Assembly: GCA_016177025.1 (NCBI GenBank)
Contig: JACOWB010000008.1
Location: 14,076 to 78,075, forward strand
DNA from: Candidatus Aenigmatarchaeota archaeon
GTDB taxonomy: Archaea > Aenigmatarchaeota > Aenigmatarchaeia > CG10238-14 > SCSR01
DNA length: 64,000 nucleotides
Direction of reading: 5' to 3'
Under the pieces are notes generated by a model. That model searched no databases, was not told the DNA's origin, and saw nothing but the letters and a program-made list of their open reading frames with translations. Shown one piece after another: positions 2,480 through 21,584 of this stretch. The position numbers were made by a program, and so were the translations under genes. How positions within the stretch are numbered: the stretch's first letter is position 1; each line of letters opens with the position of its first letter.

Positions 2480-2501
2480 AAGTAGCTTTCAATAGACAAT
2501 T

Positions 2502-3143
2502 ATGCCAGCGCTTGTAGTAAGTATAGATGGGCCAGACTTCTCGGGCAAGTCCACAATAGCGAATCTTTTAATGGAAATACTGCGAAAGAGTAACAATGAC
2601 ATCATATTCAAGCGAACGGAAGTCCCTAGCACTTTAAGCACAGGGTTTTTCACAAAGATTCTTCGGAACTCTGCGGACGAAATTTCGTCTAACGTGTTTG
2701 CCTTGGCATATGCCACCGATCATCTGCACCACTATGAGACTGTGATCGAACCATTGAACGGATCGGGGAAAAATTATGTGGTTATCCAAGAACGCTCACT
2801 TCTGTCCACATATATTTATCAAAGCTTGATAGGTAAGACAGATTTGAAATGGTTGAAAGAAATAAACAAATTTGACAAAAATATACCTAACTTGACAATT
2901 CTACTGAAGGTTCCTGCGAATGAAATCATAAAAAGGAGCCAATTGGAAAAAAGAGATCACGACAAGTTTGAGACACCAGAACACCTTGAGGAAGAATTAA
3001 AAGTTTACTACAATTTACCTGAAGAGCTGGCAAATGAGTTTAATGTCGAATATATAGATGCTGGAGACAACCCAGAAAACGTAGCTGAAAGATGCGCGAA
3101 AAGAATTCAGAAAGAAATTGATGAAAGATTAAAGTGGCACTAG
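2502..3143 (+). CDS. tmk: thymidylate kinase
   Basis: P-loop DGPDFSGKST at N-terminus; ~210 aa; typical dTMP-kinase length and lid region. Confidence 0.75.
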   Translation: MPALVVSIDGPDFSGKSTIANLLMEILRKSNNDIIFKRTEVPSTLSTGFFTKILRNSADEISSNVFALAYATDHLHHYETVIEPLNGSGKNYVVIQERSLLSTYIYQSLIGKTDLKWLKEINKFDKNIPNLTILLKVPANEIIKRSQLEKRDHDKFETPEHLEEELKVYYNLPEELANEFNVEYIDAGDNPENVAERCAKRIQKEIDERLKWH

Positions 3144-3144
3144 A

Positions 3145-3597
3145 TTATTTTGTCGACCAGTAAGTTCCCTTCTTCTTTTTCCACATGACGTAATCCTTCA
3201 GGATTTTTGTGTGGTCAAACCCTAGCTTCTTAGATTTGACTTTATCGATATCGCACCAAATGGGTTCGCCTTCAAAACTTCCTCTTAATCTTCCTCCGAT
3301 GGGTTCCATAATAAAAGCAACTGACACAGAAAGAAATCTAGGATCTCTAGACTTTCCAGAATAAACGCCGAGTATCTCTTTTATCCTGACTTTAAGCCCT
3401 GTTTCCTCTCGGGATTCCCTAACAACAGCGTGCTCGATAGTTTCACCATATTCAACCATCCCACCTGGAAGCTGCAACATTCCTTTGAACGGAGTTATCG
3501 TTCGCTTTGACAAAACTATTTTGTTCTTCTTCACAATCAGAGGGTCTACCGCAATCTTTGGTGATTTAGACGGTTCTTTCCAACTACTGACCTTCAT
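3145..3597 (-). CDS. NUDIX hydrolase
   Basis: Nudix box GGMVEYGETIEHAVVRESREETGL (Gx5Ex7REUxEExGU). Confidence 0.8.
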   Translation of the reverse strand: MKVSSWKEPSKSPKIAVDPLIVKKNKIVLSKRTITPFKGMLQLPGGMVEYGETIEHAVVRESREETGLKVRIKEILGVYSGKSRDPRFLSVSVAFIMEPIGGRLRGSFEGEPIWCDIDKVKSKKLGFDHTKILKDYVMWKKKKGTYWSTK

Positions 3598-3600
3598 ATA

Positions 3601-3750
3601 TTAACTAACGTATCCCTTTACTAATAATCGTCCCAACTCCGTCAATCGAACCTTTATCCTCCCTCGTTTTTCTTCAGTTTCAACCAGTCCCATCGTTTTC
3701 AATCCTTCCGACTTCATGTTTCCAACCGGAGCTATCATTGTGTATTTCAT
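3601..3750 (-). pseudogene. remnant (49 codons) of a paralog of the CARF-like/wHTH regulator at 18332-18982; N-terminal 10 aa fused to C-terminal ~37 aa
   Basis: Translation MKYTMIAPVGNMKSEGLKTMGLVETEEKRGRIKVRLTELGRLLVKGYVS matches the first 10 and last ~40 residues of the 216-aa protein. The adjacent 5' region is also conserved. Confidence 0.5.
3667..3707. repeat. 41-nt exact repeat shared with 18416-18456 (3' end of regulator gene copies)
   Basis: TTTTTCTTCAGTTTCAACCAGTCCCATCGTTTTCAATCCTT is identical at both loci; flanks are ~70-85% identical. Confidence 0.7.
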
Positions 3751-3835
3751 GATAAATTAAATGTTTCCTTATCTTTTAAATCTAATGTTTAATTGTTAAA
3801 TGCCACTTATATAGTGGCAAATTGTCTTCTTAATA
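3751..3835 (-). promoter_or_regulatory. conserved 5' region (TATA-like TTAAAAG plus AAGGA SD-like) shared with the promoter of the 18332-18982 gene
   Basis: About 85% identity over ~50 nt with 18983-19035. Contains TTAAAAGATAAGGA on the coding strand about 12-25 nt upstream of the ATG. Confidence 0.35.
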
Positions 3836-3839
3836 AAAG

Positions 3840-4574
3840 GTGAAAACGATTAAAGTAAGTTTCGATGTCTCCAAATCAACGGTTGCTTTGCTTGTGTTCG
3901 CACTAGGCATAGGATACTTATTAGGAAATGTATTCGGAGTGTCCAGTTTTACAGGAAAGACTACTGAAATTACAGCTATAACTCAGACACAGCCTACGCA
4001 ACAGCAACAACCGTCAAAAGTTCAAGTATCGATTGATGATGATCCTTCAATGGGCGAAAAGGATGCCAAAGTTATAGTTATAGAATTTTCTGATTTCCAA
4101 TGTCCGTTCTGTAGAAGATCCTACACAGATACAATATCTCAACTGAAGAAGGATTATATTGATACAGGGAAGGTGCTTTTTGTATACAGAGATTTCCCAT
4201 TAAGCTCCATACATCCTAGCGCATCATCTGCTGCCATGGCTGCCAACTGTGCGAATGAACAAGGCAAGTTCTGGGAAATGCACAACAAAATATTTGATGA
4301 ACAAAACAAGCAAGGGCAGGGAACAGTACAATTTTCTAGTGATGACTTGAAGAAATGGGCCGATGAGATTGGTTTAGACACTGATAAATTCAATTCTTGC
4401 TTAGACTCACAAAAATACAAAGATGAAGTTGATAAAGACTTTCAAGACGGTGTAACAGCTGGCGTCACAGGGACTCCGACATTCTATATAGGGAATCCAA
4501 AAGACGGATATACAGAAATCGTAGGTGCTCAACCGTATTCTGTTATCAGGCAAGTGATAGATTCAATGCTTTAA
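3840..4574 (+). CDS. DsbA-like thiol:disulfide oxidoreductase (thioredoxin fold), N-terminal signal anchor
   Basis: FQCPFCRR CxxC active site in DsbA-like context; hydrophobic N-terminal segment; GTG start. Confidence 0.7.
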   Translation: MKTIKVSFDVSKSTVALLVFALGIGYLLGNVFGVSSFTGKTTEITAITQTQPTQQQQPSKVQVSIDDDPSMGEKDAKVIVIEFSDFQCPFCRRSYTDTISQLKKDYIDTGKVLFVYRDFPLSSIHPSASSAAMAANCANEQGKFWEMHNKIFDEQNKQGQGTVQFSSDDLKKWADEIGLDTDKFNSCLDSQKYKDEVDKDFQDGVTAGVTGTPTFYIGNPKDGYTEIVGAQPYSVIRQVIDSML

Positions 4575-5143
4575 TGAACATTATGGGAAAAAGGAATGTA
4601 TTTGTACATAACTTGAAAGAAATAAAAGAGTCTGTAGTGCTCGTCTTTAGCAAACAGGTTTATATATTTTCCGCGATTTCAATTTCAGCTTTTCTTTTTT
4701 TCTTATTTATTTTCCTTACAAACATGCCACTCTTTCTCCAAGCATGGTCGGTGGGCGGATTTGCACTTTTTCCTAAAGTTTCGTTGAATATTATCAATAC
4801 TATCTTGTCTGTTTCGGGTAACTTGGCTTTAAGCCTGATGGTTGCTGTAGCTCTAGCCGGGGGAATTAACATTTCCATGATTGCTTTCAAGTTTCTGGCA
4901 ACAAGAAACAGAGAAATTAATTTGTTCAGCATAGGCGGCTTAATCGGGAGTGCATTCGGTGCAGGCTGTCCTGCCTGTTCAACCTCCTTACTTTCGATAT
5001 TAGGTGTTACGGGCGGTTTGTCAATTCTTCCCTTCAAAGGTATTGAGTTCACATTCAGCGGTTTGATAATTCTTCTTATTTCTTTATATTTTATAGCCAA
5101 GTCAATAAGTAATTGCGAAGAGTGCAAGATTAGAGCTAATTAG
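4574..5143 (+). CDS. polytopic membrane protein with intramembrane GAGCPAC motif and C-terminal CEEC; candidate redox partner of DsbA or metal permease
   Basis: About 5 predicted TM helices. GSAFGAGCPACSTSLLSILG lies in a hydrophobic segment; NCEECK is at the C-terminus. N-terminal domain of the 7581-9002 protein shares the same motif arrangement. Confidence 0.45.
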   Translation: MNIMGKRNVFVHNLKEIKESVVLVFSKQVYIFSAISISAFLFFLFIFLTNMPLFLQAWSVGGFALFPKVSLNIINTILSVSGNLALSLMVAVALAGGINISMIAFKFLATRNREINLFSIGGLIGSAFGAGCPACSTSLLSILGVTGGLSILPFKGIEFTFSGLIILLISLYFIAKSISNCEECKIRAN

Positions 5144-5196
5144 TTTGATTTAACTTAATCAAAAGATTTAAATAGTATATATGCCATAGATATCAT

Positions 5197-5508
5197 ATGA
5201 TAAAAACACCATATAAATTATTCTTCGGTACATTAAGCAATGAGATAAGATTAAAAATATTGCATGCATTAGCGGAAAAACCTAAAAACGTCACACAACT
5301 TACTAATGAACTCGGGTTTGACCAAACAACTGTGTCAAAGAACTTAAAGCGTTTGGCTACATGCCAATTTATTACAAACAAGAAAATAGGAAAACACAGC
5401 ATCTACTCTTTAAATAAGAAGACCATCTTGCCTTTGCTCAAGCTTATAGATAGACATGTTGATAAGTATTGTAAAAACTGCGAGTTGCTCCTGAATGAAA
5501 GAATATGA
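5197..5508 (+). CDS. ArsR/SmtB-family HTH transcriptional regulator (archaeal MerR-like position)
   Basis: ArsR HTH signature LKILHALAEKPKNVTQLTNELGFDQTTVSKNLKRL. Immediately upstream of and overlapping the merA-like gene. Confidence 0.75.
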   Translation: MIKTPYKLFFGTLSNEIRLKILHALAEKPKNVTQLTNELGFDQTTVSKNLKRLATCQFITNKKIGKHSIYSLNKKTILPLLKLIDRHVDKYCKNCELLLNERI

Positions 5509-6782
5509 TTTAATAATCTTGGGTCAAGGGTCAGCCGCATTTGCTGCAGCAATAAAAGCAAATGATTTAGGAATAAAAACAGCTATGGTTGGTGGCAATG
5601 CCACTTCCGGTGCGTTAATAGGTGGTACTTGTGTTAATGTTGGTTGCATGCCAAGCAAGAATCTAATCACAGTGGGGACCCTCTATTACCATGCGGTGAA
5701 TAATTCTTTCGAAGGGATTAAATATGGAAAAGGAAGACTCAATTTCAAGAAAGTTATCGAACAAAAGGATAGGCTTGTAAAGAAGTTTAGAAAAGAAAAA
5801 TATGCTGATGTTGTGAAAGGTTTGGAGAACGTGACTTATTTTGAAGGCAAAGGTAAGTTCATTTCTAAGGATGAAGTCGAAGTTGAAGGTAAAACACTAA
5901 AAGGAAAAAAGTTCTTGGTTGCTGTCGGTGCAATATCTAACATAATTCCTGTTCAAGGAATAGAAAAAATAGAGTACCTAACAAATGAAGAAGCTCTGAG
6001 TTTGAAGGAATTACCTAAATCAATGTGTGTCATTGGTGGCAGGGCTTTAGGACTGGAATTTGCACAAATGTATGCACACTTTGGAACTAAGGTAACAGTT
6101 TTGCAAAGAAGCGATAGAATTCTTCCAGAGGGGGAACCTGAAATTTCTGAAGCATTGAGAAAATACTTGGAAGAAGAAGGTATAATTATTTACACAGGGA
6201 CAGAGATTAACAGTGTAGATAAGAAAGGGAAAAATAAAACTGTTAATTTCACTGTTGGCAATGAAACAAAAGAAGCTGAATTTGAGCAAATTCTATTTGC
6301 AACTGGCAGAAAACCAAATACAGAAAATCTGGGATTAGAGAAAGTAGACGTGAAAACTGATGAAAAGGGTTTCATTATAGTGAATGATGAAATGCAAACA
6401 TCTGCACCAAGTATTTGGGCTGCCGGAGACGTCATTGGGGAACCTATGCTGGAAACTATTGCAGCGAAAGAAGGTGCTGTAGCAGTGGATAATGCTTTTA
6501 CGGAAAGCAAAAGGAAGATTAATTTTAATGAAGTTCCTTCTGCTGTATTTACCTATCCTGATAGTTGCAGACAATGATACAAAACAGATTGTGGGCGTTC
6601 ATATAGTAGCACCCCACGCAGCCGATCTTATACATGAAGGAACGCTAGCCGTTAAATTCAAGATGAAAATAGATGACATAATTGACACAGTCCATGTTTT
6701 TCCAACATTATCTGAAGCGATTAAATTAGCTGCACAGTCATTCTATAAGGATGTTAGCAGGCTGAGCTGTTGTACCGAGTGA
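5495..6782 (+). pseudogene. merA: mercuric reductase (MerA)-like pyridine nucleotide-disulfide oxidoreductase, disrupted by an internal deletion and a frameshift
   Basis: N-terminal FAD motif and redox-active GGTCVNVGCMPSK (CxxxxC). The dimerisation domain ([15 protein letters not shown]...[15 protein letters not shown]) continues in a second frame from ~6580. The C-terminus [11 protein letters not shown] carries the MerA-type vicinal Cys pair. About 45 aa of the interface domain is missing between TYPD and KQIVGV. Confidence 0.6.
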
Positions 6783-6894
6783 CATTTTTGGTTATAGTAG
6801 GTGATTATCTGTTTTTATCGTCGGTATTCGTAGAAGAATTTGCATCTTTACTCTTTTCCCAATAATTTAAATCTTAATTAACAATAGGATTGTT

Positions 6895-7566
6895 ATGGAA
6901 AAAGTTTCTTGTGATGTCTGCGGTAGAAAGTTCAAGACTAGTGAAGCCTTGACCCAACATAAAAATGATGCGCATAAACAGACTAGTGACGAAAAACAAC
7001 AAAGAAAAAAGAAGATATCAACAGGTAAGATACTTGCTTTTTTGATACCATCCTTGATTGTTTTAGGCATTGGATACGGGATTTATTGGGCTTTGTCAAC
7101 AGAAGGTGTGGGAACTATTGGGTCAACGCATATCCACGCTGACTTTGCTGTTTTTCTGGATAGTGAAGAAATTACCCCGCTTCCAGAGCAGTATTTTGTA
7201 GCTAGTCCGTATGTGCATGTCGAGACTGGAGCTGGAGCTGGTACTGTAATTCATATACATGCCACTGACGTACCTCTGAAGATGTTTTTCAACAGTCTCG
7301 GTATGAAGTTTAACTCAGAGTGTTTCGAAGCTGGTCAGGACAACAAATACTGTAATTACGGTGATACTACTCTGAAAATGTTTGTAAAGCATGCTAATAG
7401 TACATGGGAACAGAATTTCGAATATGAAAAATACATCTCCCAAGATTTGGATAAAATATTGATTACATACGGGAGCGACACGGACGAGGAGATTCAGCTA
7501 CAACAGAATAATGTAACAGATTTCTCAAAAGACAACTCTGGCAGAAGCATGGCTCTAAGAAGATAA
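6895..7566 (+). CDS. membrane protein: N-terminal C2H2/zinc-ribbon-like Cys2His2 element, one TM helix, extracytoplasmic His-rich domain (paralog family A)
   Basis: CDVCGRKFKTSEALTQHKNDAH; TM ILAFLIPSLIVLGIGYGIYWAL; then HIHADF...IHIHATD...KMFFNSLG...C...C, homologous to 10042-10551 and 14344-15015. Confidence 0.55.
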   Translation: MEKVSCDVCGRKFKTSEALTQHKNDAHKQTSDEKQQRKKKISTGKILAFLIPSLIVLGIGYGIYWALSTEGVGTIGSTHIHADFAVFLDSEEITPLPEQYFVASPYVHVETGAGAGTVIHIHATDVPLKMFFNSLGMKFNSECFEAGQDNKYCNYGDTTLKMFVKHANSTWEQNFEYEKYISQDLDKILITYGSDTDEEIQLQQNNVTDFSKDNSGRSMALRR

Positions 7567-7580
7567 ATTTAATAGCTCTA

Positions 7581-9002
7581 ATGGAGAAAGAATATATAAT
7601 GAAACGGAAATCCGGCATTCGAGAAATGGTATCGAACACATTTACCGTTGTAGCACGCAAAAATCTTGCGTTCTTTCTGATTTCATTAATAGCATTCACC
7701 CTTCTATATCTGTTCTTTTACGGTGTTTTCACAATCCCTGTCCTTGAGATAGGATTCTTCAAGGATGTCAAGCCTGGTGCATTTGATTACTTCTACATTT
7801 TCTCTTCGTCTTTATTGTCGGCATTGATAGTGACGTTGACAAAATATTCAATCACGAACAAAGTTCTTACCAGAGGAACATCCATTTTTGGCATATCTGC
7901 AGGTGTATTCGGTGCAATATGCCCTGTATGCTTGGGTGTGAATTTCCTAGTATTTGGTAGTTTTGTAACGCTTCCTCTGGTTTCATTGATTCCTTATTTA
8001 TTCTGGATACAGCTTGCTGGTCTCACGTTATTGACATTGGGCTTAGGGGCGACTATAAAAAATTCTTATGATAATATTTGCCTGGCATGCACAACTGAGA
8101 TTAAAGAAAAGAAAATCAAGACAAGTCTATTGGGTAGTACACTAAATCCTTTCCAAAGTTTTGTATTTTTTGCGTTATTGCTGTTGGCTATTTTTGCCTT
8201 GGGGTATCAGATTCTACCGCTGGTGTTGGGAGACGTATTTACTAGCACGGGTGCAGCAGTCGCTACAAATGGTCATGATAGTGATTTAGATTTAGAAACA
8301 GTAGTTTCGCAGGTTCTTCCTGAAGAAGGATTTACAATAGATGCTATATGGGAGGACTCTGTAAGCAAGATGGTGAAAGCTGGTACATTAGATATTGATA
8401 AATTGAACGACATATTGACAAAGCGGTATGGTCAACCATTGACAGAAGAACAGAAGAAACTATTGACATCGGATTATTCTAATGAAAAACTTACAATAAA
8501 CTCAAAGAATGCGGTTTTCATGATGTATGTTCTTTGGGCTCTAGCGAAAGACAATGACAACCAGATTCTGCATGACAGTCCGTTTGCACAGTATTTTGAA
8601 GATTATGATATAGGAGTTGGTAAGGCTGGTTATGGTGATACTAAATTAATTGACTTGACTCCCGAGCAGCAGGAGATTGCAAAATACGCTGCACTTAATT
8701 CCTACAGACCATGCTGCGGCAATCCTACAGGTCATCCCGATTGTTCGCACGGATTTTCTGCATTGGGGTTGATTGAATTGATGGCAGAACAAGGATATAC
8801 CAAAGAACAGATATTCGATGCTTTCGTGAAATTCAACTCATACTGGTTCCCGTCCACGTATATCCAAGATGCGCTATACTTTAAATTGGCAGAAAACAAA
8901 GATTGGAGTGATGTTGACAGAGAACTTGTTGCTGGAAAGCAGTATTCGTCCTTATCTGGCTCTTATGCGGTTAAGCAATACTTGCAAAATCTAGGAGTAT
9001 AG
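7581..9002 (+). CDS. large membrane protein: N-terminal domain with intramembrane GAICPVCLG and loop CLAC motifs; C-terminal soluble Cys-containing domain of unknown function
   Basis: About 6 TM helices in the first ~200 aa, paralogous to the 4574-5143 protein. C-terminal domain contains PCCGNPTGHPDCSHG. Confidence 0.5.
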   Translation: MEKEYIMKRKSGIREMVSNTFTVVARKNLAFFLISLIAFTLLYLFFYGVFTIPVLEIGFFKDVKPGAFDYFYIFSSSLLSALIVTLTKYSITNKVLTRGTSIFGISAGVFGAICPVCLGVNFLVFGSFVTLPLVSLIPYLFWIQLAGLTLLTLGLGATIKNSYDNICLACTTEIKEKKIKTSLLGSTLNPFQSFVFFALLLLAIFALGYQILPLVLGDVFTSTGAAVATNGHDSDLDLETVVSQVLPEEGFTIDAIWEDSVSKMVKAGTLDIDKLNDILTKRYGQPLTEEQKKLLTSDYSNEKLTINSKNAVFMMYVLWALAKDNDNQILHDSPFAQYFEDYDIGVGKAGYGDTKLIDLTPEQQEIAKYAALNSYRPCCGNPTGHPDCSHGFSALGLIELMAEQGYTKEQIFDAFVKFNSYWFPSTYIQDALYFKLAENKDWSDVDRELVAGKQYSSLSGSYAVKQYLQNLGV

Positions 9003-9012
9003 GAGGTTAAAA

Positions 9013-9204
9013 ATGAATACAAATGTCGTGTTGCTTGCGCTGATAGGCATACTGGTGTTGATGGCTGGAATACAGGCTTTCCAATTGACTACACTGTCAC
9101 AGGCTATCTCCGGCGGTACATTAATGTCCTCATCAGTGTCAGGTGCGGGATCTGGCGTACTATCGCAACTGTCGCAAGCTTCACAAGTCGGCGGATGCGG
9201 ATAG
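9013..9204 (+). CDS. small secreted/membrane-anchored Ser/Gly-rich peptide ending in GGCG
   Basis: 63 aa; hydrophobic N-terminus then S/G-rich tail with C-terminal ...VGGCG; AGGAGG RBS 8 nt upstream. Confidence 0.4.
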   Translation: MNTNVVLLALIGILVLMAGIQAFQLTTLSQAISGGTLMSSSVSGAGSGVLSQLSQASQVGGCG

Positions 9205-9232
9205 GTTTTCTTCTTTAATTGGAGATGAATAA

Positions 9233-10039
9233 TTGAGAAAACAAAAAAGGTCAGATAACAGATTATTCTGGAATATGTTTTTCGGACTTGTGGTAGTTCT
9301 GATAGTTCTGTACGGAGTGAACATTTTTATAACTGGCAATATAATCGGTCCTTTAAAAGATTCTGCTGAAAAGGAAAGACCGGCGAACTTGCATCTGGCT
9401 TTAATCACGAATGATTGTGACAACTGTTACGACATGAACAATGCTGCATCATTCATAAAAAGACAGACTACTGTGAAAGTAATTACGGAAAAAAATCTTA
9501 CATATGCCGATAAAGCGGCGCAAGAACTTGTATCTGCGAACAACATCAAAACGCTACCGGCTTTGGTGATTACAGGCGAGACTCTTCAAGATAATGTAAT
9601 GCCATTGTGGAATAGCATGGGTGCAGAATTTGTGGGCAATGTTGTCATTGTAAACGGCATACCACCTTATTACAGTTTAGACGCACAAAAAATCGTGGGA
9701 CTTGTACAAGTAACCAAATTGACAGATAACTCCTGTGCAGAATGCTACGATGTTGAAAACCATATGGCGATATTGCCGAGATTTGGCATCTACATAGACA
9801 AGTCAATACCTTATGATGTGTCCTCAGCCAACGGCAAGACTTTGGTACAGAAGTACAACATAACTAAAGTCCCTACGATAGTCCTTTCATCGGACGCTTC
9901 TGCATACACTTCGCTAAATAATGTATGGGGAGATGTGGGTACTGTTGAAAGCGACGGGCAGTATGTTTTCAGAGCTGTAGAACAGATGGGAACCTATAAA
10001 GATCTTGCTCGGAATAATGTAATCAATGCGACCAGATAA
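9233..10039 (+). CDS. membrane-anchored protein with two thioredoxin-like CxxC repeats
   Basis: N-terminal TM, then two ~110-aa repeats, each with a CxxC (NDCDNCYD and NSCAECYD) followed by a cis-Pro-like VPT/LPAL pattern typical of the Trx fold. Confidence 0.5.
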   Translation: MRKQKRSDNRLFWNMFFGLVVVLIVLYGVNIFITGNIIGPLKDSAEKERPANLHLALITNDCDNCYDMNNAASFIKRQTTVKVITEKNLTYADKAAQELVSANNIKTLPALVITGETLQDNVMPLWNSMGAEFVGNVVIVNGIPPYYSLDAQKIVGLVQVTKLTDNSCAECYDVENHMAILPRFGIYIDKSIPYDVSSANGKTLVQKYNITKVPTIVLSSDASAYTSLNNVWGDVGTVESDGQYVFRAVEQMGTYKDLARNNVINATR

Positions 10040-10041
10040 AA

Positions 10042-10551
10042 ATGAAAAAGTCAAAAAAAAATCAAAATCTAATTTTAGTTTTTATTATAGTCATTGCTAC
10101 TATCGGTTTGGGACTAGGTTTGTATTCTTTGCTTGCTGTTTCGAAAACTACCGGTTATGTCAGTTTACCTAATAAGCCGATACATTGGCATCCTCACCTT
10201 GAAATAATTATAAAGGGTGAAAAAGTTGTCATACCTACCAACATAGGAATTGGTACAAGTTATTCGGGTAGCCCATTCTACGATTCGATGATGGACATGA
10301 CTAACATGCATACTCATGATGACAGCGGCACATTACACTGGGAAGTTATGATGCATGCACCAACACGTGAAGACATGTACCTCGGTAATTTCTTCCAAGT
10401 CTGGGGAAAGACTTTTAATGAGAATTGCATTTTTGAATTTTGCAACGGTCCTGAAGGAAGTATGAAAGTGTCTGTAAATGGAAAAGAAAATAATGATTTT
10501 GAGAGTTATATTATCAGAGATGGAGATGAAATAGTAATAGAATTTAAGTGA
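10042..10551 (+). CDS. membrane-anchored extracytoplasmic His-rich domain protein (paralog family A)
   Basis: N-terminal TM; IHWHPHLEI...HTHDDSGTLHWE...LGNFFQVWG...C...C...SVNG; homologous to 6895-7566 and 14344-15015. Confidence 0.55.
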   Translation: MKKSKKNQNLILVFIIVIATIGLGLGLYSLLAVSKTTGYVSLPNKPIHWHPHLEIIIKGEKVVIPTNIGIGTSYSGSPFYDSMMDMTNMHTHDDSGTLHWEVMMHAPTREDMYLGNFFQVWGKTFNENCIFEFCNGPEGSMKVSVNGKENNDFESYIIRDGDEIVIEFK

Positions 10552-10556
10552 AGATA

Positions 10557-10694
10557 ATGGTAATAGACCCTGTTTGCAAGATGGAAATCCCCGAAGGAAA
10601 CATCAAAGCCCAAAATAAAGGAAAGACATACTATTTCTGCAGCAGCAACTGCCAAGCTGAATTCATGATATATCCGAATAAGTTTGTAAAATAA
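10557..10694 (+). CDS. YHS/TRASH-domain small metallochaperone (CopM-like), 45 aa; not in ORF track
   Basis: MVIDPVCKMEI...KTYYFCSSNCQAEF is a YHS/TRASH Cys pattern. It is closely similar to the N-terminal domain of the CopA immediately downstream, in the CopM-CopA arrangement known from Sulfolobus. Confidence 0.6.
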   Translation: MVIDPVCKMEIPEGNIKAQNKGKTYYFCSSNCQAEFMIYPNKFVK

Positions 10695-10703
10695 TATAAT
10701 TAT

Positions 10704-12776
10704 ATGACTGTAGATCCTGTCTGCGGAATGTATGTCGATGAAAAGAAAGCTATCTTCAAGAAGGATATCGACAGTAAGACTATTTATTTCTGTAGTGAAA
10801 ATTGCCTGAAAACTTATGAGTCCCGTGAAAAGGAATTCAAAAAATTAAGATTACTTGTTATCCTAAGCGGATTGATAGCTGTTCCTGTGGTTGCTTTGTC
10901 ATTCTTTTACAAACTCCCGTACAATAATTGGATTCTGCTTTTGCTCGCTACGCCAGTGCAGTTTGTTGCGGGCTGGAGGTTTTACAAAGGCATGTGGGAC
11001 GGGCTGAAAGCTAGAAGCGCGAATATGGACACGCTAATCGCAACCGGAACTTCTGCCGCATGGTTTTATAGTGTGTCGGTGGTTTTCTTCCCAGCAATCT
11101 TTACAGGAGAAACTTATTTTGACGCTTCTGTAATCATCATCGCACTTGTATTATTCGGAAAGCTTTTGGAAGAAATTGCCAAAGGGAAGGCATCCGAATC
11201 CATCAAAAAATTGATGGGATTGCAACCGAAAACTGCACGGATAATTAAAAACGGAAAGGAGGTTGAGATTCCTATCGAAAATGTTCAAATTAATGACATA
11301 ATTGTTGTCAGACCAGGAGAAAAGTTCCCTGTTGATGGCATTGTCGTTGAAGGGGAGTCCTCTGTTGATGAAAGCATGATTACTGGTGAATCGATGCCGG
11401 TGACAAAAAGGAAAGGTGATGAAGTCATTGGTGCGACTATAAATAAATCCGGATTGCTGAGATTCAAAGCCACTAAGGTCGGCAAGGATACTGTCCTGCA
11501 GCAGATAATTAAAGTTGTTCAGGAAGCGCAAACTGGCAAAGCACCTATACAGAGACTGGCTGACAAAGTTGCGTCTATCTTCACCCCGAGTGTTATCGCT
11601 GTTGCCATCTTATCGGGAATATTATGGTTCTTTCTGGGGCAGAATTTCATTTTTGCATTGACGATATTCATTACGGTTCTGATAATAGCATGCCCGTGTG
11701 CATTGGGAATAGCCACGCCAACCGCAATTCTGGTAGGTACAGGATTGGGAGCTCAGAATGGAATTTTAATCAAGGGTGGCGAAGCATTGGAAATCGCCAA
11801 GAAAATAAACACAATAATTTTTGACAAGACTGGAACACTGACGAAAGGCGAACCTTCTGTTACTGATGTTGTAAGACTAGGAAATGTGAAAGAGAACGAA
11901 GTTTTGAGATTGGCTGCCATTGCCGAAGTAGGCTCTGAACATCCTATCGGGGAAGCTATCGTTAAGAAAGCCATGGAAAGTAATCTGACACTGCCGAATG
12001 TAAAATCTTACCAGACTGTTTCTGGTAAAGGAATTAAAGTCACATATCTGAATAAAAGGATTCTGGTGGGCAACAGGACTTTCATGAAAGAGAATGGAAT
12101 TGTTATCACAGAGCTTGAAGGTGAGATACAAAAACTGGAAGATGAGGGGAAAACGACTGTGATTGTTGCTTATGGTGATAAAGTTATCGGATTGATTGGA
12201 GTTGCAGATACTCTTAAAGAGTTTTCGAAGGATGCTGTTCAACAGCTGAAGAAAATGGGGATTGGTGTCTGGATGATTACAGGGGATAATGAGAGAACTG
12301 CAAATTCTATTGCAAGTGACGTTGGCATTGATTATGTTATGGCGGGCGTCTTGCCTGAGGATAAAGCGAAGAAGGTGAAAGAACTGCAGGATAAAGGAAT
12401 GATAGTCTCCGCTGTTGGTGACGGAATTAATGATGCTCCCATGCTGGCACAGGCTGATTTGGGAATTGCGATAGGTTCTGGAACAGATGTTGCACTTGAG
12501 ACAGGTAAGATAGTTCTGATTAAGAATGATTTGAGAGATGTTGTTACTTCGATTGACTTGAGCAAGTATACTGTCAACAAGATAAAACAGAATCTTTTTT
12601 GGGCATTCTTTTACAATACTGTCGGGATACCGTTAGCTGCAGGAATATTATATCCATTCTTCGGATTGTTGCTTTCGCCGATAATTGCTGGTGCAGCCAT
12701 GGCATTTAGCTCATTTTCTGTAGTTGGAAATTCACTTTTAATGAGAATGTACAGACCAAGAATACAAACGAAATAA
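10704..12776 (+). CDS. copA: copper-translocating P1B-type ATPase with N-terminal YHS/TRASH metal-binding domain
   Basis: DPVCGMYVD...YFCSENC N-domain, TGES, CPC ([11 protein letters not shown]), [15 protein letters not shown] motifs; 8 TM topology. Confidence 0.9.
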
Positions 12777-12799: not shown

Positions 12800-13306
12800 A
12801 TGAAAACTCTATGGATAGCACTAGCAAGCATCCTTGCTTTAGTCACTTCTGCATATGCCCATATGGAAACATCTTCTGTCGAAGACATGATGGGTTCTAT
12901 GATGGCTGAGCAAAATGCTAGCGAGTTGGGACAATTAGATTGTAGCAAAATACCTGACAGTGAATTCGAAGAACTTGGCGACGCTACGATGGAAAGAATG
13001 GTAGGTGGTAGTGAATTACACGAGCAGATGGATACTATGATGGGTGGGGAAGGTTCTGCGAGTTTGACGCAAATGCATATTATAATGGGAAAGAACTGGT
13101 TGAGTTGCACGAGTCTCCAAGGCATGATGGGAAGCAATATGATGCCTATGATGATGAGAATGATGGGAAATTACTATCCATCTTATTACACAGGTTATAA
13201 TGCAGCTTTAATTTTTGCTATACTTGGTTGGGGATTGGCTGCTGTATTGATTGTGATTTTGGTTTTAATTCTCACGGGCAACATTAAAATTAAAAAAAGA
13301 AAATAA
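12800..13306 (+). CDS. secreted Met-rich protein with C-terminal membrane anchor; putative Cu(I)-binding
   Basis: Signal peptide ...SAYA/HM; multiple MMGSMM / MxxM / MMPMMMRMMG Mets motifs; C-terminal TM plus KKRK; adjacent to copA. Confidence 0.5.
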   Translation: MKTLWIALASILALVTSAYAHMETSSVEDMMGSMMAEQNASELGQLDCSKIPDSEFEELGDATMERMVGGSELHEQMDTMMGGEGSASLTQMHIIMGKNWLSCTSLQGMMGSNMMPMMMRMMGNYYPSYYTGYNAALIFAILGWGLAAVLIVILVLILTGNIKIKKRK

Positions 13307-13357: not shown

Positions 13358-13636
13358 CTAAGAAATATCACGATAAGTATCGTACATGAAAGTGCATTCT
13401 TTATTATGTTTCGCCAACAGCTTTTTCACACGATTAAAAATCGCATCAGATTTTATCTCCTTTCTACCCTTCGCCAACAGTTGTATATTCTCCATGATGT
13501 CTCTGGAAATTTTCTTTGCTATTTTTTCTTCCATCTCAGCACTTAAGCAGGCATTATAAACAGACTTGTACAGCTTCGCTCCACTGAATTTCTCCTTTTT
13601 ATTACTTCTTTTTACGACGTACATAACTTCACCCAA
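13358..13636 (-). CDS. stand-alone ATP-cone domain protein
   Basis: YVVKRSNKKEKFSGAKLYKSVYNAC...IAKKI matches the ATP-cone (VIKRDG..E.F...KI..AI) pattern; 92 aa. Confidence 0.45.
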   Translation of the reverse strand: MGEVMYVVKRSNKKEKFSGAKLYKSVYNACLSAEMEEKIAKKISRDIMENIQLLAKGRKEIKSDAIFNRVKKLLAKHNKECTFMYDTYRDIS

Positions 13637-14351
13637 AGTTTATCGTACCGTTCGCTATTAATATTAATAGCCAACTCAAACCGATTAAAAGCAATCCTGT
13701 AAACAATCGCATGTGTGCACGATATTTTTGTTTCCATATTTTTATGCTAGTTATTCTTGCACCAATTAAAAATATAATCAGAATTACAATTAAAGGTAAA
13801 ACAAAAATCAAATTATACAAAACTAATAAACTGAATGCGGTAAAGTCGAAATGTTGTGATAGAAGTAGAATGATGGCAAGATAAGGTCCGCCAGTGCATG
13901 GTAACTCGATAGCAGCTACGAAAGCACCGAGGAATAGTAAACTTGGAAATGTTATTTTTGTTGAATACTCGCTTATTTTCTTCGCCATACTAGGTGCGAT
14001 ACTTAAACTGAATCCTTTTCCATACCATAAGAAATCTTTTATTTCCACTAGTCCGGCTAATGTCAATACCGATGCAACAGCAACGCTAATATATGCGGCT
14101 ACGACAAGTGGAATTTGGCTAAGAAATGTCATCAGTCCCAAACCCGCTAAAAGATAAGTTGTAAAAACAGCGCCAATATAAGCCAGACCAAATATAAACA
14201 TCTTCCTCTTTGTCTGACGCATTATTAAAAATGTCGACAAAAGTAGAAGCAACACCCCGATAGCACAAGGATTGATAGAATCTACTAATGCAGTCGCCAT
14301 TACAATACCCAATGCAGGCAACCCGGCCTCTACAACCATATTATCACTCAA
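13629..14351 (-). CDS. ccdA: CcdA/DsbD-family transmembrane thiol-disulfide electron transporter
   Basis: Two conserved Cys in TM helices 1 and 4 (SINPCAIGVL and ELPCTGGPYL); ~6 TM; 240 aa. Confidence 0.7.
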   Translation of the reverse strand: MSDNMVVEAGLPALGIVMATALVDSINPCAIGVLLLLLSTFLIMRQTKRKMFIFGLAYIGAVFTTYLLAGLGLMTFLSQIPLVVAAYISVAVASVLTLAGLVEIKDFLWYGKGFSLSIAPSMAKKISEYSTKITFPSLLFLGAFVAAIELPCTGGPYLAIILLLSQHFDFTAFSLLVLYNLIFVLPLIVILIIFLIGARITSIKIWKQKYRAHMRLFTGLLLIGLSWLLILIANGTINFG

Positions 14352-15015
14352 AAACTATTTTTATGAAATCACCTGGTGGAACCTGTGAATAAGGTGAGAT
14401 GATGTAATCACGATAATTTCCCGTGTAAAGTTTATCATTTACAGACATTTCCACGCTTCCTTTCTTCCCATCAGGACAATAATCACCGTTTCCAACGTTT
14501 AGAATTTTCTCATTTGAGAAAGGAACATCGATTGCATCGAAAAAGTTACCGAGAGTGGCATCTTCTCTTTCTTTCATGACACCCTCCAAATGAATTCTAT
14601 AATCACCGTGATGATGAATTTCTTCTGTTCCAATTCTGTTTGCCAACCCTGTCGGTTCAGGTAAAACAACTTTTTGACCACATATCCAAATTTCAAAATC
14701 AGCATGCCAGTGTACCAATCCCTTACTCCAAGATGTTAATGACATGTACACAGTATTTCCAACAAGATACCCGGTAGATACAACAGCTGACACAACTATT
14801 ATCCCAAAAATAATTCTTTTTTGACTCTCCTTCAAACTATCTTTATAAGTTAACAACATTGTTGTTGATGCGAGTATAACAACAACTGTTAGAGCTAGTA
14901 CAGTTGTTGAACTAAATTGGTGAGTTAGACTTTCTGAAGCAGTTTCGTGTAGTTCTCCTGTATGAGCAAACGTAGCAGGCATCAGAAAGATAAACAATAC
15001 CAAGCTGGCAAGTCT
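14344..15015 (-). CDS. secreted/membrane-anchored His-rich domain protein (paralog family A); likely start at MRLASLVLF
   Basis: Signal peptide MRLASLVLFIFLMPATFAH; HWHADFEI...HHHGDYRIH...LGNFFDA...C...SVN...IKIVFE, homologous to 10042-10551. The track ORF extends to 15120 but overlaps the upstream small gene. Confidence 0.55.
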   Translation of the reverse strand, partial: RLASLVLFIFLMPATFAHTGELHETASESLTHQFSSTTVLALTVVVILASTTMLLTYKDSLKESQKRIIFGIIVVSAVVSTGYLVGNTVYMSLTSWSKGLVHWHADFEIWICGQKVVLPEPTGLANRIGTEEIHHHGDYRIHLEGVMKEREDATLGNFFDAIDVPFSNEKILNVGNGDYCPDGKKGSVEMSVNDKLYTGNYRDYIISPYSQVPPGDFIKIVFE

Positions 15016-15022
15016 CATGAAA

Positions 15023-15208
15023 TCAACAAACCTCACATATGTTAGCTTTCTTTTTCTTTCCCTTATGTTTTTCGTAATGTTGAACGCATTTTCCGCAACA
15101 AAATAATCGTTTATGAACATGGACTTTCTTTCTTAGATGAAGAGTCTTGCCACATTCATAACATTTCTCCAAGTTTGTTGCTTTCCACGAGAGAATTTTT
15201 TTAATCAT
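15023..15208 (-). CDS. small TRASH-like zinc-ribbon protein (Cys4/His-rich, Lys-rich tail)
   Basis: CYECGKTLHLRKKVHVHKRLFCCGKC has C-x2-C-x17-C-x3-C spacing, like TRASH/YHS metal-binding modules; 61 aa. Confidence 0.45.
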   Translation of the reverse strand: MIKKILSWKATNLEKCYECGKTLHLRKKVHVHKRLFCCGKCVQHYEKHKGKKKKANICEVC

Positions 15209-15890: not shown

Positions 15891-16466
15891 ATGGATTTAA
15901 GACAGATCGCAGTTGCAGCCGCAGTAGCCATCCTGTCAGCCGTGTTTGTCATTCTCCTGATTGATCTTTTGTATGAGGAACCGCAGTGGAATGATTACTG
16001 CAAAAATGACTACGGACCACGTGCCAAGCCTGTTCCTGCAGGCGTCGAACTCAAATGTGATTATGAATACGGCGAGGAAGAGCAGAAATGCATGGAAGAC
16101 GGGGGATTAATAAGAACCAAGTTGAATGAATCTGGATGCCCTGTATTTGATTATTGCGATCCTTGTAGCAAAGATTATGACGCGACTAGAAAGATATACA
16201 CTAGAAATGTTTTCATTATTGCTGGAGTGATTGGTGTAATTGCTATATTCGCCGGTACTTTATGGAAGATTGAATTCCTTGCAAGCGGATTGATGTTCGG
16301 CGGGTTGATTTTATTGTTCTATGCAACCGTCAGGTTTTTCGGAGATGCGGACAAGCTGTTGAGGGTAATAATTATTTTCGTCGAGCTTCTACTTGTCCTG
16401 TGGATAGGATATAAAAAGCTGTACAAAAGTGAAGGTAAGAAAGAAAAACGAAAGAAAAAATCTTAA
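15891..16466 (+). CDS. membrane protein with Cys-rich ectodomain, unknown function
   Basis: N-terminal TM, ~90-aa segment with 7 Cys (CKNDYG...CDYEYG...CMEDGG...CPVFDYCDPC), then 2-3 TM helices and a Lys-rich tail. Confidence 0.45.
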   Translation: MDLRQIAVAAAVAILSAVFVILLIDLLYEEPQWNDYCKNDYGPRAKPVPAGVELKCDYEYGEEEQKCMEDGGLIRTKLNESGCPVFDYCDPCSKDYDATRKIYTRNVFIIAGVIGVIAIFAGTLWKIEFLASGLMFGGLILLFYATVRFFGDADKLLRVIIIFVELLLVLWIGYKKLYKSEGKKEKRKKKS

Positions 16467-20866: not shown

Positions 20867-21262
20867 TTATAAGAAAAGTTTTGTAAATCCTAATTCGAGT
20901 AACGATTCTGGTATAAATCTGTAACAAAAGCCTTGATGCGAACTAGGCGTCCTTTCAACAATTCCTCTTTCAAATAGGCAAGCCACTCTTCCATAAGGAG
21001 TCCAAGATGTTCTGCTAGAATAAAACTCTGGATTCGTCTCTTCTTCCTTTTTTCTCTTCTCAATTAAAAGTTCTTCTGCATCTTTTGCTTTAAACGGTCT
21101 GCTGCCAAAACGATCAACAAGAATTCCTATAAACTCTGGCAGATCTGGAGAGTATTTGGAACGCCTAGGATCAGGTAATCCTATATACCCCATTCGATAC
21201 CATTGTGTAAGTCCGTCTATTTCTTGTTCATAACTCCCTACAACTGCATTGCCTTCTGTCAT
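20867..21262 (-). CDS. hypothetical protein
   Basis: ORF only, 131 aa. Confidence 0.4.
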   Translation of the reverse strand: MTEGNAVVGSYEQEIDGLTQWYRMGYIGLPDPRRSKYSPDLPEFIGILVDRFGSRPFKAKDAEELLIEKRKKEEETNPEFYSSRTSWTPYGRVACLFERGIVERTPSSHQGFCYRFIPESLLELGFTKLFL

Positions 21263-21312
21263 GCTATAGAATATATACTACGATTATTTAAGATTACTGT
21301 CTGTGGAAGATG

Positions 21313-21570
21313 CTATCTTTTCTTCAAATACTTCTTCTTGACGTATGCTGCAAAGCTTGCCGCAGCTCTTTTATTTTTCCTTCTTAAAGTTGTTATTACA
21401 AGTTTTGAAAGCCTCTCTGCTCTTACTGTCCCTTCTCCTACTTTCTTTGCGACTTCTTCTGCAACCATCATCGCTGACTTGGCGCTAGCACCTGCCTTTT
21501 TGCATGCTTTCACTATTTTGTTTTTGTTAAAAGTTTGTAGTGTCCCGTTCCTTTTTCTTACTTTTGCCAT
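21313..21570 (-). CDS. stand-alone ATP-cone domain protein (basic C-terminal tail)
   Basis: MAKVRKRNGTLQTFNKNKIVKACKKAG...AEEVAKKV fits the ATP-cone pattern; 85 aa. Confidence 0.5.
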   Translation of the reverse strand: MAKVRKRNGTLQTFNKNKIVKACKKAGASAKSAMMVAEEVAKKVGEGTVRAERLSKLVITTLRRKNKRAAASFAAYVKKKYLKKR

Positions 21571-21584
21571 AAAACTAATTGGTT

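Follow-up and report, generated by a model that had tools for sequence, protein, structure and literature searches.

The window (the whole stretch of 64,000 nucleotides that was analysed) contains a gene for a DsbA-like protein followed by an ORF of 189 aa, the start of which overlaps the DsbA stop codon by one base (TAATG, 4572-4576). The pair is followed directly by ArsR-merA, with copA 5.5 kb away, and a conserved five-gene module that includes an ORF of 473 aa is also present (Table 1). The initial annotation had singled out the DsbA-like gene, the two ORFs and their cysteine motifs, all of which were found where it had placed them: GAGCPACS (C132/C135) and CEEC (C181/C184) in the 189-aa protein, GAICPVCLG (C114/C117) and CLAC (C167/C170) in the 473-aa protein. 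The merA gene is disrupted, with the TIGR02053 MerA model split over two ORFs (positions 1-350, 1e-116, and 392-464, 3e-30). A tblastn search, for which the undisrupted L018 orthologue (472 aa) was the query, showed that merA residues 358-397 are absent and that the frame changes from +3 to +1; with this internal deletion of ~40 codons and the frame change the gene is a pseudogene, or else the assembly is in error here.

Table 1. Genes and sequence features of the region 3840-12776, by position in the window.
Feature	Position	Strand	Basis
Membrane-anchored DsbA-like thioredoxin-fold protein, DFQ-CPFC, GTPTF cis-Pro loop	3840-4574	+	Thioredoxin_4 8.5e-35, DSBA 1.2e-19 (Pfam)
189-aa stand-alone C-[PAST]-x-C member	4574-5143	+	ORF; four helices, predicted N-in
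Codons of invariant intramembrane C132-P-A-C135	4967-4978	+	A1, A4, A5, 63/63 metagenome homologues
Codons of cytoplasmic-side C181-E-E-C184	5114-5125	+	Aligns with MerT Cys76/Cys82
ArsR/SmtB-type metalloregulator, 3' end overlapping merA start	5197-5508	+	HTH_metalloreg 1.4e-17 (NCBIfam), HTH_5 (Pfam)
merA, mercuric reductase (core type, C-terminal CC), disrupted	5495-6782	+	TIGR02053
C2H2 zinc finger, one TM helix, extracytoplasmic His-rich domain	6895-7566	+	First gene of conserved five-gene module
473-aa fusion: four-helix C-P-x-C module ~1-170, fifth helix ~190-216, extracytoplasmic Cys3His ~236-473	7581-9002	+	Alignments A2, A3
63-aa membrane-anchored peptide, Gly/Ser-rich linker, conserved C-terminus ...SQVGGCG	9013-9204	+	ORF
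Membrane-anchored protein, two thioredoxin-like domains, CDNC and CAEC, PDO-like	9233-10039	+	Weak Thioredoxin_3/_2, PDO_seleno_TRX
Membrane-anchored His-rich protein (HWHPH..., MHTHDD...)	10042-10551	+	Last gene of five-gene module
CopA-type P1B ATPase, N-terminal YHS, CPC in membrane	10704-12776	+	E1-E2_ATPase 7e-61, Hydrolase, YHS 1e-7 (Pfam)

Direct comparison of the 189-aa and 473-aa proteins by BLASTP gave a weak match (17 aa, E 0.012). The 189-aa protein does match the N-domain of P0137, a member of the 473-aa family, over 162 aa (E 9e-15), and hhalign of profiles A1 and A3 gave 98.2% (E 5.5e-14) for an alignment of 165 columns that keeps the two Cys motifs in register. These comparisons show that the resemblance which the initial annotation had seen between the 189-aa protein and residues ~1-170 of the 473-aa protein is due to homology and not to chance. 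Both carry one four-helix membrane module of an unnamed and previously undescribed family, for which no match was found in Pfam, NCBIfam or the PDB. Its members are distributed among DPANN archaea and Nitrosopumilaceae, with Patescibacteria having it as fusions.

The cysteines are kept by orthologues. The membrane C-[PAST]-x-C is invariant in alignments A1, A4 and A5, and all 63 metagenome homologues retain the CxxC (38 CPxC, 15 CAxC, 9 CSxC and 1 CTxC). A Cys on the cytoplasmic side was likewise found in 63/63, with a single Cys at that site in 59 of them; the second CxxC is clade-specific, C184 being conserved in 90% or more of the sequences and C181 restricted to this clade, and a few distant fused members are without any Cys after helix 4. 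C132, C135, G144 and P153 are the invariant residues of the family. Its alignment revealed no other conserved chemically active residues, no Cys in the outer loops and no conserved residues suggesting a cofactor site.

A topology of four helices with the N-terminus inside is predicted from the positive-inside rule and from fusions to secreted domains. Among 26 diverse members the mean number of K+R was 3.8 in the N-terminus, 1.1 in loop 1, 2.4 in loop 2, 0.5 in loop 3 and 2.9 in the C-terminus, and the fused forms have a fifth helix, beyond which come domains that in other proteins bear a lipobox or signal peptide. Because of this topology the second Cys pair would be cytoplasmic, and the layout of DsbB and VKOR is thus not matched. 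In the AF2 model of the 189-aa protein (pLDDT 76, falling to 53-67 right at the CxxC) the CPAC is flanked by helices 118-127 and 133-146 and lies at a break in helix 3, mid-bilayer and away from the outer surface, with the CEEC after helix 4. A PDB fold search with this protein gave no match. Of the two Cys pairs for which the initial annotation had considered an oxidoreductase role, the first is therefore placed within the membrane and the second on the cytoplasmic face.

The Cys3His domain of the 473-aa protein has an invariant RPCC...DCxHG and is modelled by AF2 with pLDDT >95; no PDB match was found at E<=0.001. Among 110 proteins that combine this domain with a long N-terminus, 104 bear C[PSTA]xC in their N-domain, and other fusions of the four-helix module are to a cupredoxin (P0296) or a 4-Cys domain. 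An ORF for a ...GGCG peptide adjoins every CSHG-type C-domain gene examined (L018, L017, L020, L021 and L022, from DPANN and Patescibacteria), and in CNHG-type C-domains the tail is fused (GGxCG[VIA]), with a Cys among the last 5 residues in 135/263. The 63-aa peptide may act together with the Cys3His domain as a flexible cysteine arm. Within the module the double-thioredoxin gene is kept in L017, L018, L020 and L021, and the zinc-finger gene, whose zf-C2H2 matches fall under the Pfam cut-off (best 4.5e-4, 21.0 vs 25.2 bits), is syntenic in L018, L020 and L021 and paralogous to the last, His-rich gene (E 6e-9). The latter has a further paralogue at 14344-15120 (-) (E 1e-13), and in L012 its homologue follows the DsbA/four-helix pair.

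The link to DsbA proved very robust. A DsbA-like CPFC gene is found beside the stand-alone gene in 7/7 Aenigmarchaeota loci, directly upstream in six of these and separated by a multicopper oxidase gene in L004, and it is directly adjacent on the same strand in 33/63 metagenome loci; D[FY][QE]CPFC occurs in every orthologue of this partner. In 11 of the 63 the directly adjacent, same-strand gene encodes a CupA homologue of cupredoxin fold, which matches S. pneumoniae CupA (2MRY/4F2E) with E 1.7e-12, ligand Cys and CxMxM being aligned, and in two the adjacent gene is DUF411/CopG. At least some of the CupA-like domains must be extracellular, since a cytoplasmic zinc finger and one TM helix precede them. 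CopA was found near the family gene in 13 of the loci retrieved and CsoR in two of them. The family loci are cop or mer loci, the genomic context being mostly copper rather than mercury; a MerA gene adjoins the family gene in the window alone, where it is disrupted.

Comparison of the family profile (Neff 5.8) with a MerT+MerF profile, for which the MerT part was shallow (10 sequences), gave 81.7% (E 1.1e-5, score 36.8, 78 columns). Both Cys pairs, that of the membrane and that of the cytoplasmic side, align in register, and so do the loop Pro and the second helix. The probability climbed with profile depth (11.7, 44.8, 74.3 and 81.7%), and the score clearly exceeds those of the controls, 24.2 for the reversed profile and a mean of 14.1 for block shuffles (sd 2.8, maximum 23.9). 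A match at 82% is suggestive of a relation between MerT/MerF and the family. Pfam models of MerT and MerC gave no match to family members, and MerC, run through hhalign as a single sequence that had been checked against plasmid annotations, reached 1.3-1.4% with the CxxC motifs aligned. No match to members was obtained with Pfam models of DsbB and VKOR even at E<=10 or with those of DsbD, and hhalign to CcdA gave 0.2%. Among the relatives that the initial annotation had put forward for comparison (VKOR, DsbB, MerT and CcdA), it is thus MerT that the profiles favour. Its remark that no DsbB or VKOR homologue is recognisable in the window held for the part of the ORFs that was checked: besides the two family proteins, the sole credible multi-helix ORF with CxxC, 15891-16466, had no Pfam match, and a fourth ORF, 21203-21592, was also flagged.

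Passage of a soft metal across the membrane is the most likely function, given the mid-membrane Cys pair and the partners that handle copper or mercury. The initial annotation had offered a metal permease with an intramembrane Cys site as one of two possibilities, and the cop/mer loci, the CupA and CopG partners and the MerT/MerF match support this reading rather than prove it. By analogy, the family can be put forward with moderate confidence as a putative thiolate relay of MerT type that carries Cu(I)/Hg(II), in which the DsbA-like protein would take the place of MerP. We infer the metal cargo as well as its identity, plausibly Cu(I) in most genomes and Hg(II) here, and the direction of its transfer. 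The metal would be held outside on the Cys pair of a membrane-anchored partner, here the DsbA-like CPFC protein, its counterparts elsewhere being CupA-like or CopG-like proteins and fused domains (Cys3His, cupredoxin or 4-Cys). Through ligand exchange it would then reach the C-[PAST]-x-C where helix 3 breaks, and move on to the Cys or Cys pair after helix 4 at the cytoplasmic face, from where MerA, CopA/YHS or ArsR/CsoR sensors would accept it in the cytosol. The 473-aa protein would combine the same module with a fused outside Cys3His domain served by the tethered ...GGCG peptide. Among the points against such a relay, a resistance system would have no obvious use for importing Cu(I), and the membrane proteins known to partner the DsbA fold are redox enzymes (DsbB, VKOR and ScsB). 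The DsbA-like protein is more likely an outside hand-off partner, analogous to MerP or ScsC, than a substrate for oxidation.

The main rival, a distinctly less probable one, is export of reductant as in ScsB, CcdA or DsbD, in which electrons from thioredoxin would run through the cytoplasmic Cys and the mid-membrane CxxC to the outside partner. The thiols of DsbA-like, CupA-like, CopG-like or Cys3His proteins would thereby be kept reduced under copper stress, and could bind copper or isomerise disulfides. The commonest partner indeed has a DsbA fold (33/63 loci), and the assorted Cys-bearing partners resemble the clients of a hub enzyme; however, the four-helix protein has only 160-190 aa and, as its outer loops are without Cys, a mid-membrane disulfide would hardly be reachable for a folded partner. 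A C-P-x-C that caps the N-terminal end of a helix is classically a redox motif, yet similarity to CcdA and DsbD models is absent, the profile match in register is to MerT, and most members have one cytoplasmic Cys. Reductant supply is suggested by the double-thioredoxin protein and Cys arm of the five-gene module and by TrxR and Trx genes that in L001 lie within ~3 kb of the pair, but the same islands already contain canonical CcdA/DsbD-type genes (13629-14351 in the window, and L017, L019 and L080), which would make a second reductant conduit redundant and favours the metal relay. There is precedent in the Scs system, where the membrane reductase ScsB is induced by copper and its DsbA-like partner ScsC binds Cu(I) (PMC10907172, PMC8900818), and CPFC proteins of DsbA fold may be reductases instead of oxidases (PMC8280269).

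The other proposal of the initial annotation, that the membrane CxxC re-oxidises the DsbA-like protein as a functional analogue of DsbB or VKOR, is very improbable. Electrons would pass to an acceptor, which in these quinone-poor hosts may be a cupredoxin or multicopper oxidase that hands them on to O2. Such a gene does lie beside the pair in L004, L008, L036, L048, L055 and L069, the module-cupredoxin fusion P0296 would fit, and the DsbA gene is tightly coupled; the module, however, has CupA-like and CopG-like proteins as partners too, and these are no substrates of DsbA. Neither DsbB nor VKOR models match, their solved structures gave no fold match, conserved cofactor-binding residues are absent, and the mid-membrane CxxC, the outer loops without Cys and the cytoplasmic second Cys all speak against it. 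Equally little credence can be given to a sulfane-sulfur or persulfide relay like YeeE/SoxT with TusA or SoxY, in which the mid-membrane Cys pair would hand sulfur between cytoplasm and outside carriers and the ...GGCG peptide would be a carrier arm. In its favour are the resemblance of the peptide to the SoxY GGCGG arm, whose Cys binds the sulfur substrate (PMC6067878), a rhodanese fused to the Cys3His domain (P0179), a cytoplasmic rhodanese gene overlapping the family gene end in L029 and DsrE near the module in L020. Rhodanese or DsrE links, however, were found in 2-3 loci only, whereas links to copper run into the dozens. The neighbouring regulators are metal regulators (CsoR and ArsR), and neither the window nor the related loci examined showed any Sox, Dsr or YeeE genes.

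Among known systems DsbB and VKOR resemble the family in being four-helix proteins with CxxC that are genetically linked or fused to DsbA-like proteins, but their Cys pairs both face outward and they use quinone. In DsbD/CcdA, which are inverted repeats of 6-8 helices, the two Cys are contributed by two different helices, whereas the family has both in one helix of a four-helix protein. The ScsB-ScsC pair is similar in uniting a copper-linked membrane protein with bilayer Cys and a DsbA-like Cu(I)-binding partner (PMC10907172, PMC8900818). CupA of S. pneumoniae, with bis-thiolate and CxMxM sites, hands Cu(I) to the ATPase CopA (PMC7558416); in 11 loci the family gene comes directly after a CupA homologue with copA nearby, although here the operon partner is a small non-ATPase membrane protein. 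MerC has four helices, both termini inside and a membrane-helix CxxC, and its C-terminal tail bears a Cys pair in the cytoplasm, but its CxxC is in helix 1. MerT/MerF differ in having the Cys hairpin in helices 1-2 instead of helices 3-4 of four and a vicinal CC instead of CxxC, and MerP has an HMA fold whereas the partner here has a DsbA or cupredoxin fold. MerT/MerF and the family nevertheless share the small size, the inner-membrane location, a helix that contains a Cys pair, a short outer Pro loop, a second helix with an aromatic/basic end, a cytoplasmic Cys pair a few residues beyond it and a gene beside that of an extracytoplasmic Cys-pair protein, in the window also beside a regulator and merA. 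The precedent for the proposed relay is the transfer from MerP to Cys24/25 of MerT, then to its Cys76/82 and on to MerA (PMC5715351).

The two membrane proteins of 189 and 473 aa were found to share one four-helix module with a cysteine pair inside a membrane helix. A hypothetical protein from a Candidatus Aenigmarchaeota MAG matches the 473-aa ORF with 100% identity. Similarity between them is weak in direct BLASTP (E 0.012). The 189-aa protein matches P0137, a relative of the 473-aa protein, over 162 aa (E 9e-15), and profile-profile comparison of the two families gave 98.2% (E 5.5e-14, 165 columns) with both cysteine motifs aligned. One homologous module is therefore common to both, and the initial annotation, which had read a common pair of motifs in them (CPAC/CEEC and CPVC/CLAC), is borne out. 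Across the 26 diverse members of a membrane-only alignment, only C132, C135, G144 and P153 do not vary. The membrane CxxC is kept in 63/63 metagenome homologues found by a scan with the alignment of 189-aa-type proteins (38 CPxC, 15 CAxC, 9 CSxC and 1 CTxC), as is at least one cysteine after helix 4; a few distant fused members lack the latter. Since 59 of these 63 have a single cysteine there (3 have CxxC and 1 has CC), the CEEC/CLAC pair is clade-specific, an elaboration of a third cysteine that is conserved. A word-indexed search with the membrane-only alignment returned 29 proteins, and members of the family were found in DPANN archaea and Nitrosopumilaceae, with fused forms in Patescibacteria. 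Neither protein had a match in Pfam or NCBIfam, hmmscan of 20 members (E<=10) gave none to DsbB, VKOR, MerT, MerC, MerE or DsbD, Foldseek of the 189-aa model against the PDB gave none at E<=0.001 (best E 0.75) and HMM searches of PDB sequences with the 473-aa-family and membrane-only alignments returned noise only. Literature searches found no paper describing this four-helix family and nothing relevant on a described DsbA partner in DPANN or CPR.

Features of the window and of related loci (L numbers)
Source	Feature	Position	Strand	Remarks
Window	DsbA-like protein	3840-4574	+	Thioredoxin_4 8.5e-35; active site CPFC
Window	189-aa membrane protein	4574-5143	+	CPAC 132-135, CEEC 181-184
Window	ArsR-type regulator	5197-5508	+	
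Window	merA, split over two ORFs	5495-6782	+	
Window	Five-gene module	6895-10551		
Window	C2H2 zinc finger, one helix, His-rich domain	6895-7566	+	
Window	473-aa protein	7581-9002	+	CPVC 114-117, CLAC 167-170
Window	Cys3His domain of 473-aa protein (codons)	8286-8999	+	C-terminal ~235 aa
Window	63-aa ORF (GGCG peptide)	9013-9204	+	
Window	Double thioredoxin-like protein	9233-10039	+	CDNC, CAEC
Window	His-rich protein	10042-10551	+	
Window	CopA with YHS domain	10704-12776	+	
Window	Met-rich secreted or anchored protein	12800-13306	+	Directly 3' of copA; no Pfam match
Window	Membrane protein with CcdA-like motifs (NPCA..., LPCTGGP)	13629-14351	-	Pfam SfLAP 1.3e-9, not DsbD_TM; start overlaps end of His-rich protein gene
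Window	His-rich protein	14344-15120	-	
Window	Four-helix protein, Cys-rich outer loop incl. CDPC	15891-16466	+	No Pfam match
L017	GGCG-peptide ORF	3965-4222		
L018	GGCG-peptide ORF	6412-6594		
L020	GGCG-peptide ORF	4938-5135		
L021	GGCG-peptide ORF	4929-5105		
L022	GGCG-peptide ORF	4829-4987		
L019	Four-helix protein, CC type	5987-6415		
L021	DsbA-like gene translationally coupled to DedA/VTT-family membrane protein	2500-3863	-	Locus without four-helix module

The AF2 model of the 189-aa protein (pLDDT 76, pTM 0.71) breaks helix 3 at residues 128-132, around which confidence is lowest, so that C132 would cap the second half-helix. Mean K+R counts in the 26-member alignment (N-terminus 3.8, loop1 1.1, loop2 2.4, loop3 0.5, C-terminus 2.9) indicate four helices with the N-terminus inside. 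The CxxC is predicted to lie mid-membrane, with ~12 residues of helix 3 on either side of it, and the sequences place the cysteine after helix 4 on the cytoplasmic, K/R-rich side. Independent support for this orientation comes from the fusions. Downstream of the module, both the 473-aa protein and P0296 have a K-rich linker, next a fifth helix and finally a domain that in other proteins stands behind a lipobox (P0179) or behind a signal peptide (P0208). None of the outer loops in the 26-member alignment has a cysteine, and no cofactor residues are conserved.

In the window the start codon of the 189-aa gene overlaps the stop codon of the DsbA gene by one base (TAATG). The association with DsbA on which the initial annotation had built recurs elsewhere, a DsbA-like gene lying beside the stand-alone gene in 7/7 distinct Aenigmarchaeota loci (31-67% identity). 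Six of these loci have it immediately upstream (in L004 a multicopper oxidase gene stands between), and every such partner carries D[FY][QE]CPFC. Among the 63 metagenome loci, whose counts are subject to contig sampling bias, a DsbA-like gene is directly adjacent on the same strand in 33 (31 upstream), a gene for a cupredoxin-fold protein is directly upstream in 11, often with a 1-base gap, the neighbour encodes DUF411/CopG in two and a cytoplasmic rhodanese or a thioredoxin-like lipoprotein in one each, and in 10 it is cut off by the contig end; the fetched locus includes CopA in 13 and CsoR in two. The cupredoxin-fold partner is homologous to the Streptococcus pneumoniae Cu(I) chaperone CupA (E 1.7e-12 to 2MRY/4F2E), with which its ligand cysteine and CxMxM motif align. 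CupA is membrane-anchored, with a bis-thiolate and a Met-rich site (PMC7558416). The module is also found fused to a cupredoxin (P0296) and to a ~80-aa domain with four cysteines (L057, L062). Partners and fusions together thus link the module consistently to extracytoplasmic proteins whose cysteines handle copper. No HMA-fold MerP was found among the partners, which are DsbA-like, CupA-like or CopG-like. Mercury alone as the general function was rejected because the window is the one locus in which merA adjoins the stand-alone gene. This merA is disrupted: next to the 472-aa orthologue of L018, which is intact, residues 358-397 are absent and the frame is shifted, the C-terminal CC and the CVNVGC active site being otherwise intact. 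Either the gene is a pseudogene or the split comes from an assembly error. None of five Nitrosopumilaceae homologues has a DsbA-like gene next to it. Four were read in their full length: three (L013-L015) end in SCCSI and the fourth (L016) has instead a CC in the second cytoplasmic loop. A radical-SAM gene lies beside the homologue in all four of these ammonia-oxidising archaea, and an ArsR-like HTH gene in L013-L015.

In MerT and MerF, which take up Hg(II), a cysteine pair in a transmembrane helix is needed for transport and a second pair is cytoplasmic, and the gene lies in a mer operon with MerP and MerA. The sequences used here agree with annotated records (100% for both Tn501 MerT and Tn21 MerC), and that of MerF equals PDB 2M67 except for engineered Cys-to-Ser changes, the solved MerF constructs having Cys changed to Ser. 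The membrane-only alignment matched a single MerT sequence at 11.7% (E 0.0025) and a 7-sequence MerT profile at 44.8% (E 2.2e-4); a 122-representative family profile (Neff 5.8) matched the same MerT profile at 74.3% (E 2.7e-5) and a shallow 10-sequence profile of MerT plus MerF at 81.7% (E 1.1e-5, score 36.8, 78 columns). The register was identical in all MerT comparisons: family helix 3 with its CxxC aligns to MerT helix 1 with its CC (Cys24/25), the loop LPFKG to LEPYRP, helix 4 to MerT helix 2 and the cytoplasmic cysteine pair to Cys76/Cys82. The controls lay far below this: the reversed profile scored 24.2 (13%), 12-column block shuffles (n=40) had a mean of 14.1, sd 2.8 and a maximum of 23.9, column shuffles (n=60) reached at most 18.6, and the shuffles had a probability of at most 12%. 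The match is suggestive and probably reflects remote homology, or at least the same functional architecture.

In the accepted Mer model the ion passes from MerP Cys33/36 to MerT Cys24/25 in the membrane, on to Cys76/82 at the cytoplasmic face and then to MerA Cys558/559 (PMC5715351). We hold with moderate confidence that the module is likewise a thiolate relay for Cu(I) or Hg(II), the role of MerP being taken by a DsbA-like, CupA-like or CopG-like protein or by the fused domain. The suggestion of a metal-translocating permease in the initial annotation thus survives in the form of a relay, favoured by the extracytoplasmic copper-handling partners and the MerT register, while its cargo and direction are what we infer. 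The main rival, export of reducing equivalents as in ScsB/CcdA, appears rather unlikely. It would suit the DsbA-fold partner and has a precedent in the copper-induced, Cu(I)-binding pair ScsB/ScsC (PMC10907172, PMC8900818). However, the family has no similarity to CcdA (0.2% in hhalign against the CcdA/SfLAP-like protein of the window), a disulfide in mid-membrane would be nearly out of reach for a folded partner when the four-helix protein has no loop cysteines, and CcdA/DsbD-type genes are already present in the same islands. A DsbA re-oxidiser analogous to DsbB or VKOR, as the initial annotation had also proposed, is very improbable given that the later cysteine is cytoplasmic and that outer-loop cysteines and conserved cofactor residues are absent, and the topology also weakens it by the refuting condition that the initial annotation had set itself; a sulfur relay is a minor possibility of equally little weight.

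Individual families were also compared and rejected. DsbD/CcdA is built as an inverted repeat (3+3 helices) in which helices 1 and 4 each bear a conserved Cys; the present family has four helices with both cysteines in one, and no DsbD_TM/DsbD_2 Pfam match. DsbB has two periplasmic cysteine pairs and a quinone site; VKOR has loop cysteines besides a CxxC at the outer end of its helix 4. Neither gave a Pfam or PDB fold match, and the family CxxC is mid-membrane in helix 3. MerC (PF03203) has its CxxC in helix 1; there was no Pfam match, and hhalign against the verified Tn21 MerC gave 1.3-1.4%. The CPC/CPx motif of P1B-ATPases belongs to a 6-8-helix ATPase with A, P and N domains, whereas these proteins have 160-190 aa without ATPase domains and a variable residue after the first Cys (P, A, S or T).

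The C-terminal domain of the 473-aa protein is modelled with high confidence (AF2 pLDDT >95), has no match in the PDB (Foldseek, E<=0.001), Pfam or NCBIfam and is defined by the invariant residues R-P-C-C...D-C-x-H-G. An exhaustive profile search found 2,886 representatives of this Cys3His domain at 50% identity, with no name and no solved fold; the profile came from a mixed alignment (465 positions) dominated by the C-terminal domain, and the number therefore measures that domain and not the membrane module. Most are ~300-aa proteins of anchor plus domain, others being fused to rhodanese (P0179), BNR repeats (P0208) or other membrane domains, and C[PSTA]xC occurs in the N-terminal part of 104/110 with a long N-terminus. 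Another four-helix type, which has a vicinal CC(A/V)H inside the membrane, stands beside the domain in L019 and is fused to it in P0243; hhalign of the CxxC module against this type gave 39% (E 3e-4). Proteins of the CNHG subtype bear a Gly/Ser tail ending ...GGxCG[VIA]. Those of the CSHG subtype, including that of the window, lack the tail, and their genes always lie beside a small ORF (window, L018, L020, L021, L022 and the Patescibacteria locus L017) encoding a peptide of 52-85 aa with an anchor, a Gly/Ser/Ala-rich linker and a near-invariant ...SQVGGCG. This pairing is kept from DPANN archaea to Patescibacteria. The peptide tail resembles the GGCGG arm of SoxY, whose cysteine binds the sulfur substrate (PMC6067878).

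The double-thioredoxin protein, also kept within the five-gene module, is membrane-anchored with two thioredoxin-like halves and acidic CxxC motifs (three repeats in L020); it resembles archaeal PDO but is predicted to be extracytoplasmic. The module is syntenic in another Aenigmarchaeota genome, followed there by ArsR, intact merA, YHS and CopA. The DsbA/189-aa pair is absent from that site and is therefore a separate two-gene unit. The three His-rich domains of the window (HxH...HxHxD) are paralogous, membrane-anchored and without a family match. One is preceded by a C2H2 zinc finger in the cytoplasm and by a transmembrane helix, a layout also seen upstream of CupA-like domains in L048 and L055, which could be a membrane-tethered metal sensor or regulator. 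Tentatively, the 473-aa gene and its four neighbours may form an undescribed extracytoplasmic thiol machine of DPANN archaea and CPR bacteria. The tethered peptide would be a 'fishing line' with a flexible cysteine, comparable to the arm of SoxY or to a Cys-Gly thiol on a tether, capturing Cu(I), Hg(II) or sulfane sulfur as its thiophilic cargo and passing it to the new-fold Cys3His domain and the MerT-like transmembrane cysteine conduit fused to it, with assistance from the double-thioredoxin and His-rich proteins.

To our knowledge nothing recognisable as a counterpart of MerT/MerP, or of the proteins that hand off copper in the periplasm, has so far been available for the archaeal mer and cop systems; the family is a concrete and widespread candidate. 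On the favoured reading it would be a cysteine relay of the Mer type, set apart by its new family, its new partners and its copper context. Two further unnamed and widespread elements accompany it, the extracytoplasmic Cys3His domain with its confidently predicted fold and the small GGCG-ending peptide. In the alignment the family shares with MerT an invariant cysteine pair inside a transmembrane helix and cysteine after the next helix on the cytoplasmic face, mostly one residue and in a few fused members none; unlike MerT and MerF, it lacks an operon with MerP and MerA, merA being beside it only in the window, in broken form. In copper loci the membrane cysteine module is found time and again coupled with a DsbA-fold protein whose CPFC is invariant, which blurs the line between disulfide enzyme and metal chaperone, as Scs of Salmonella does.
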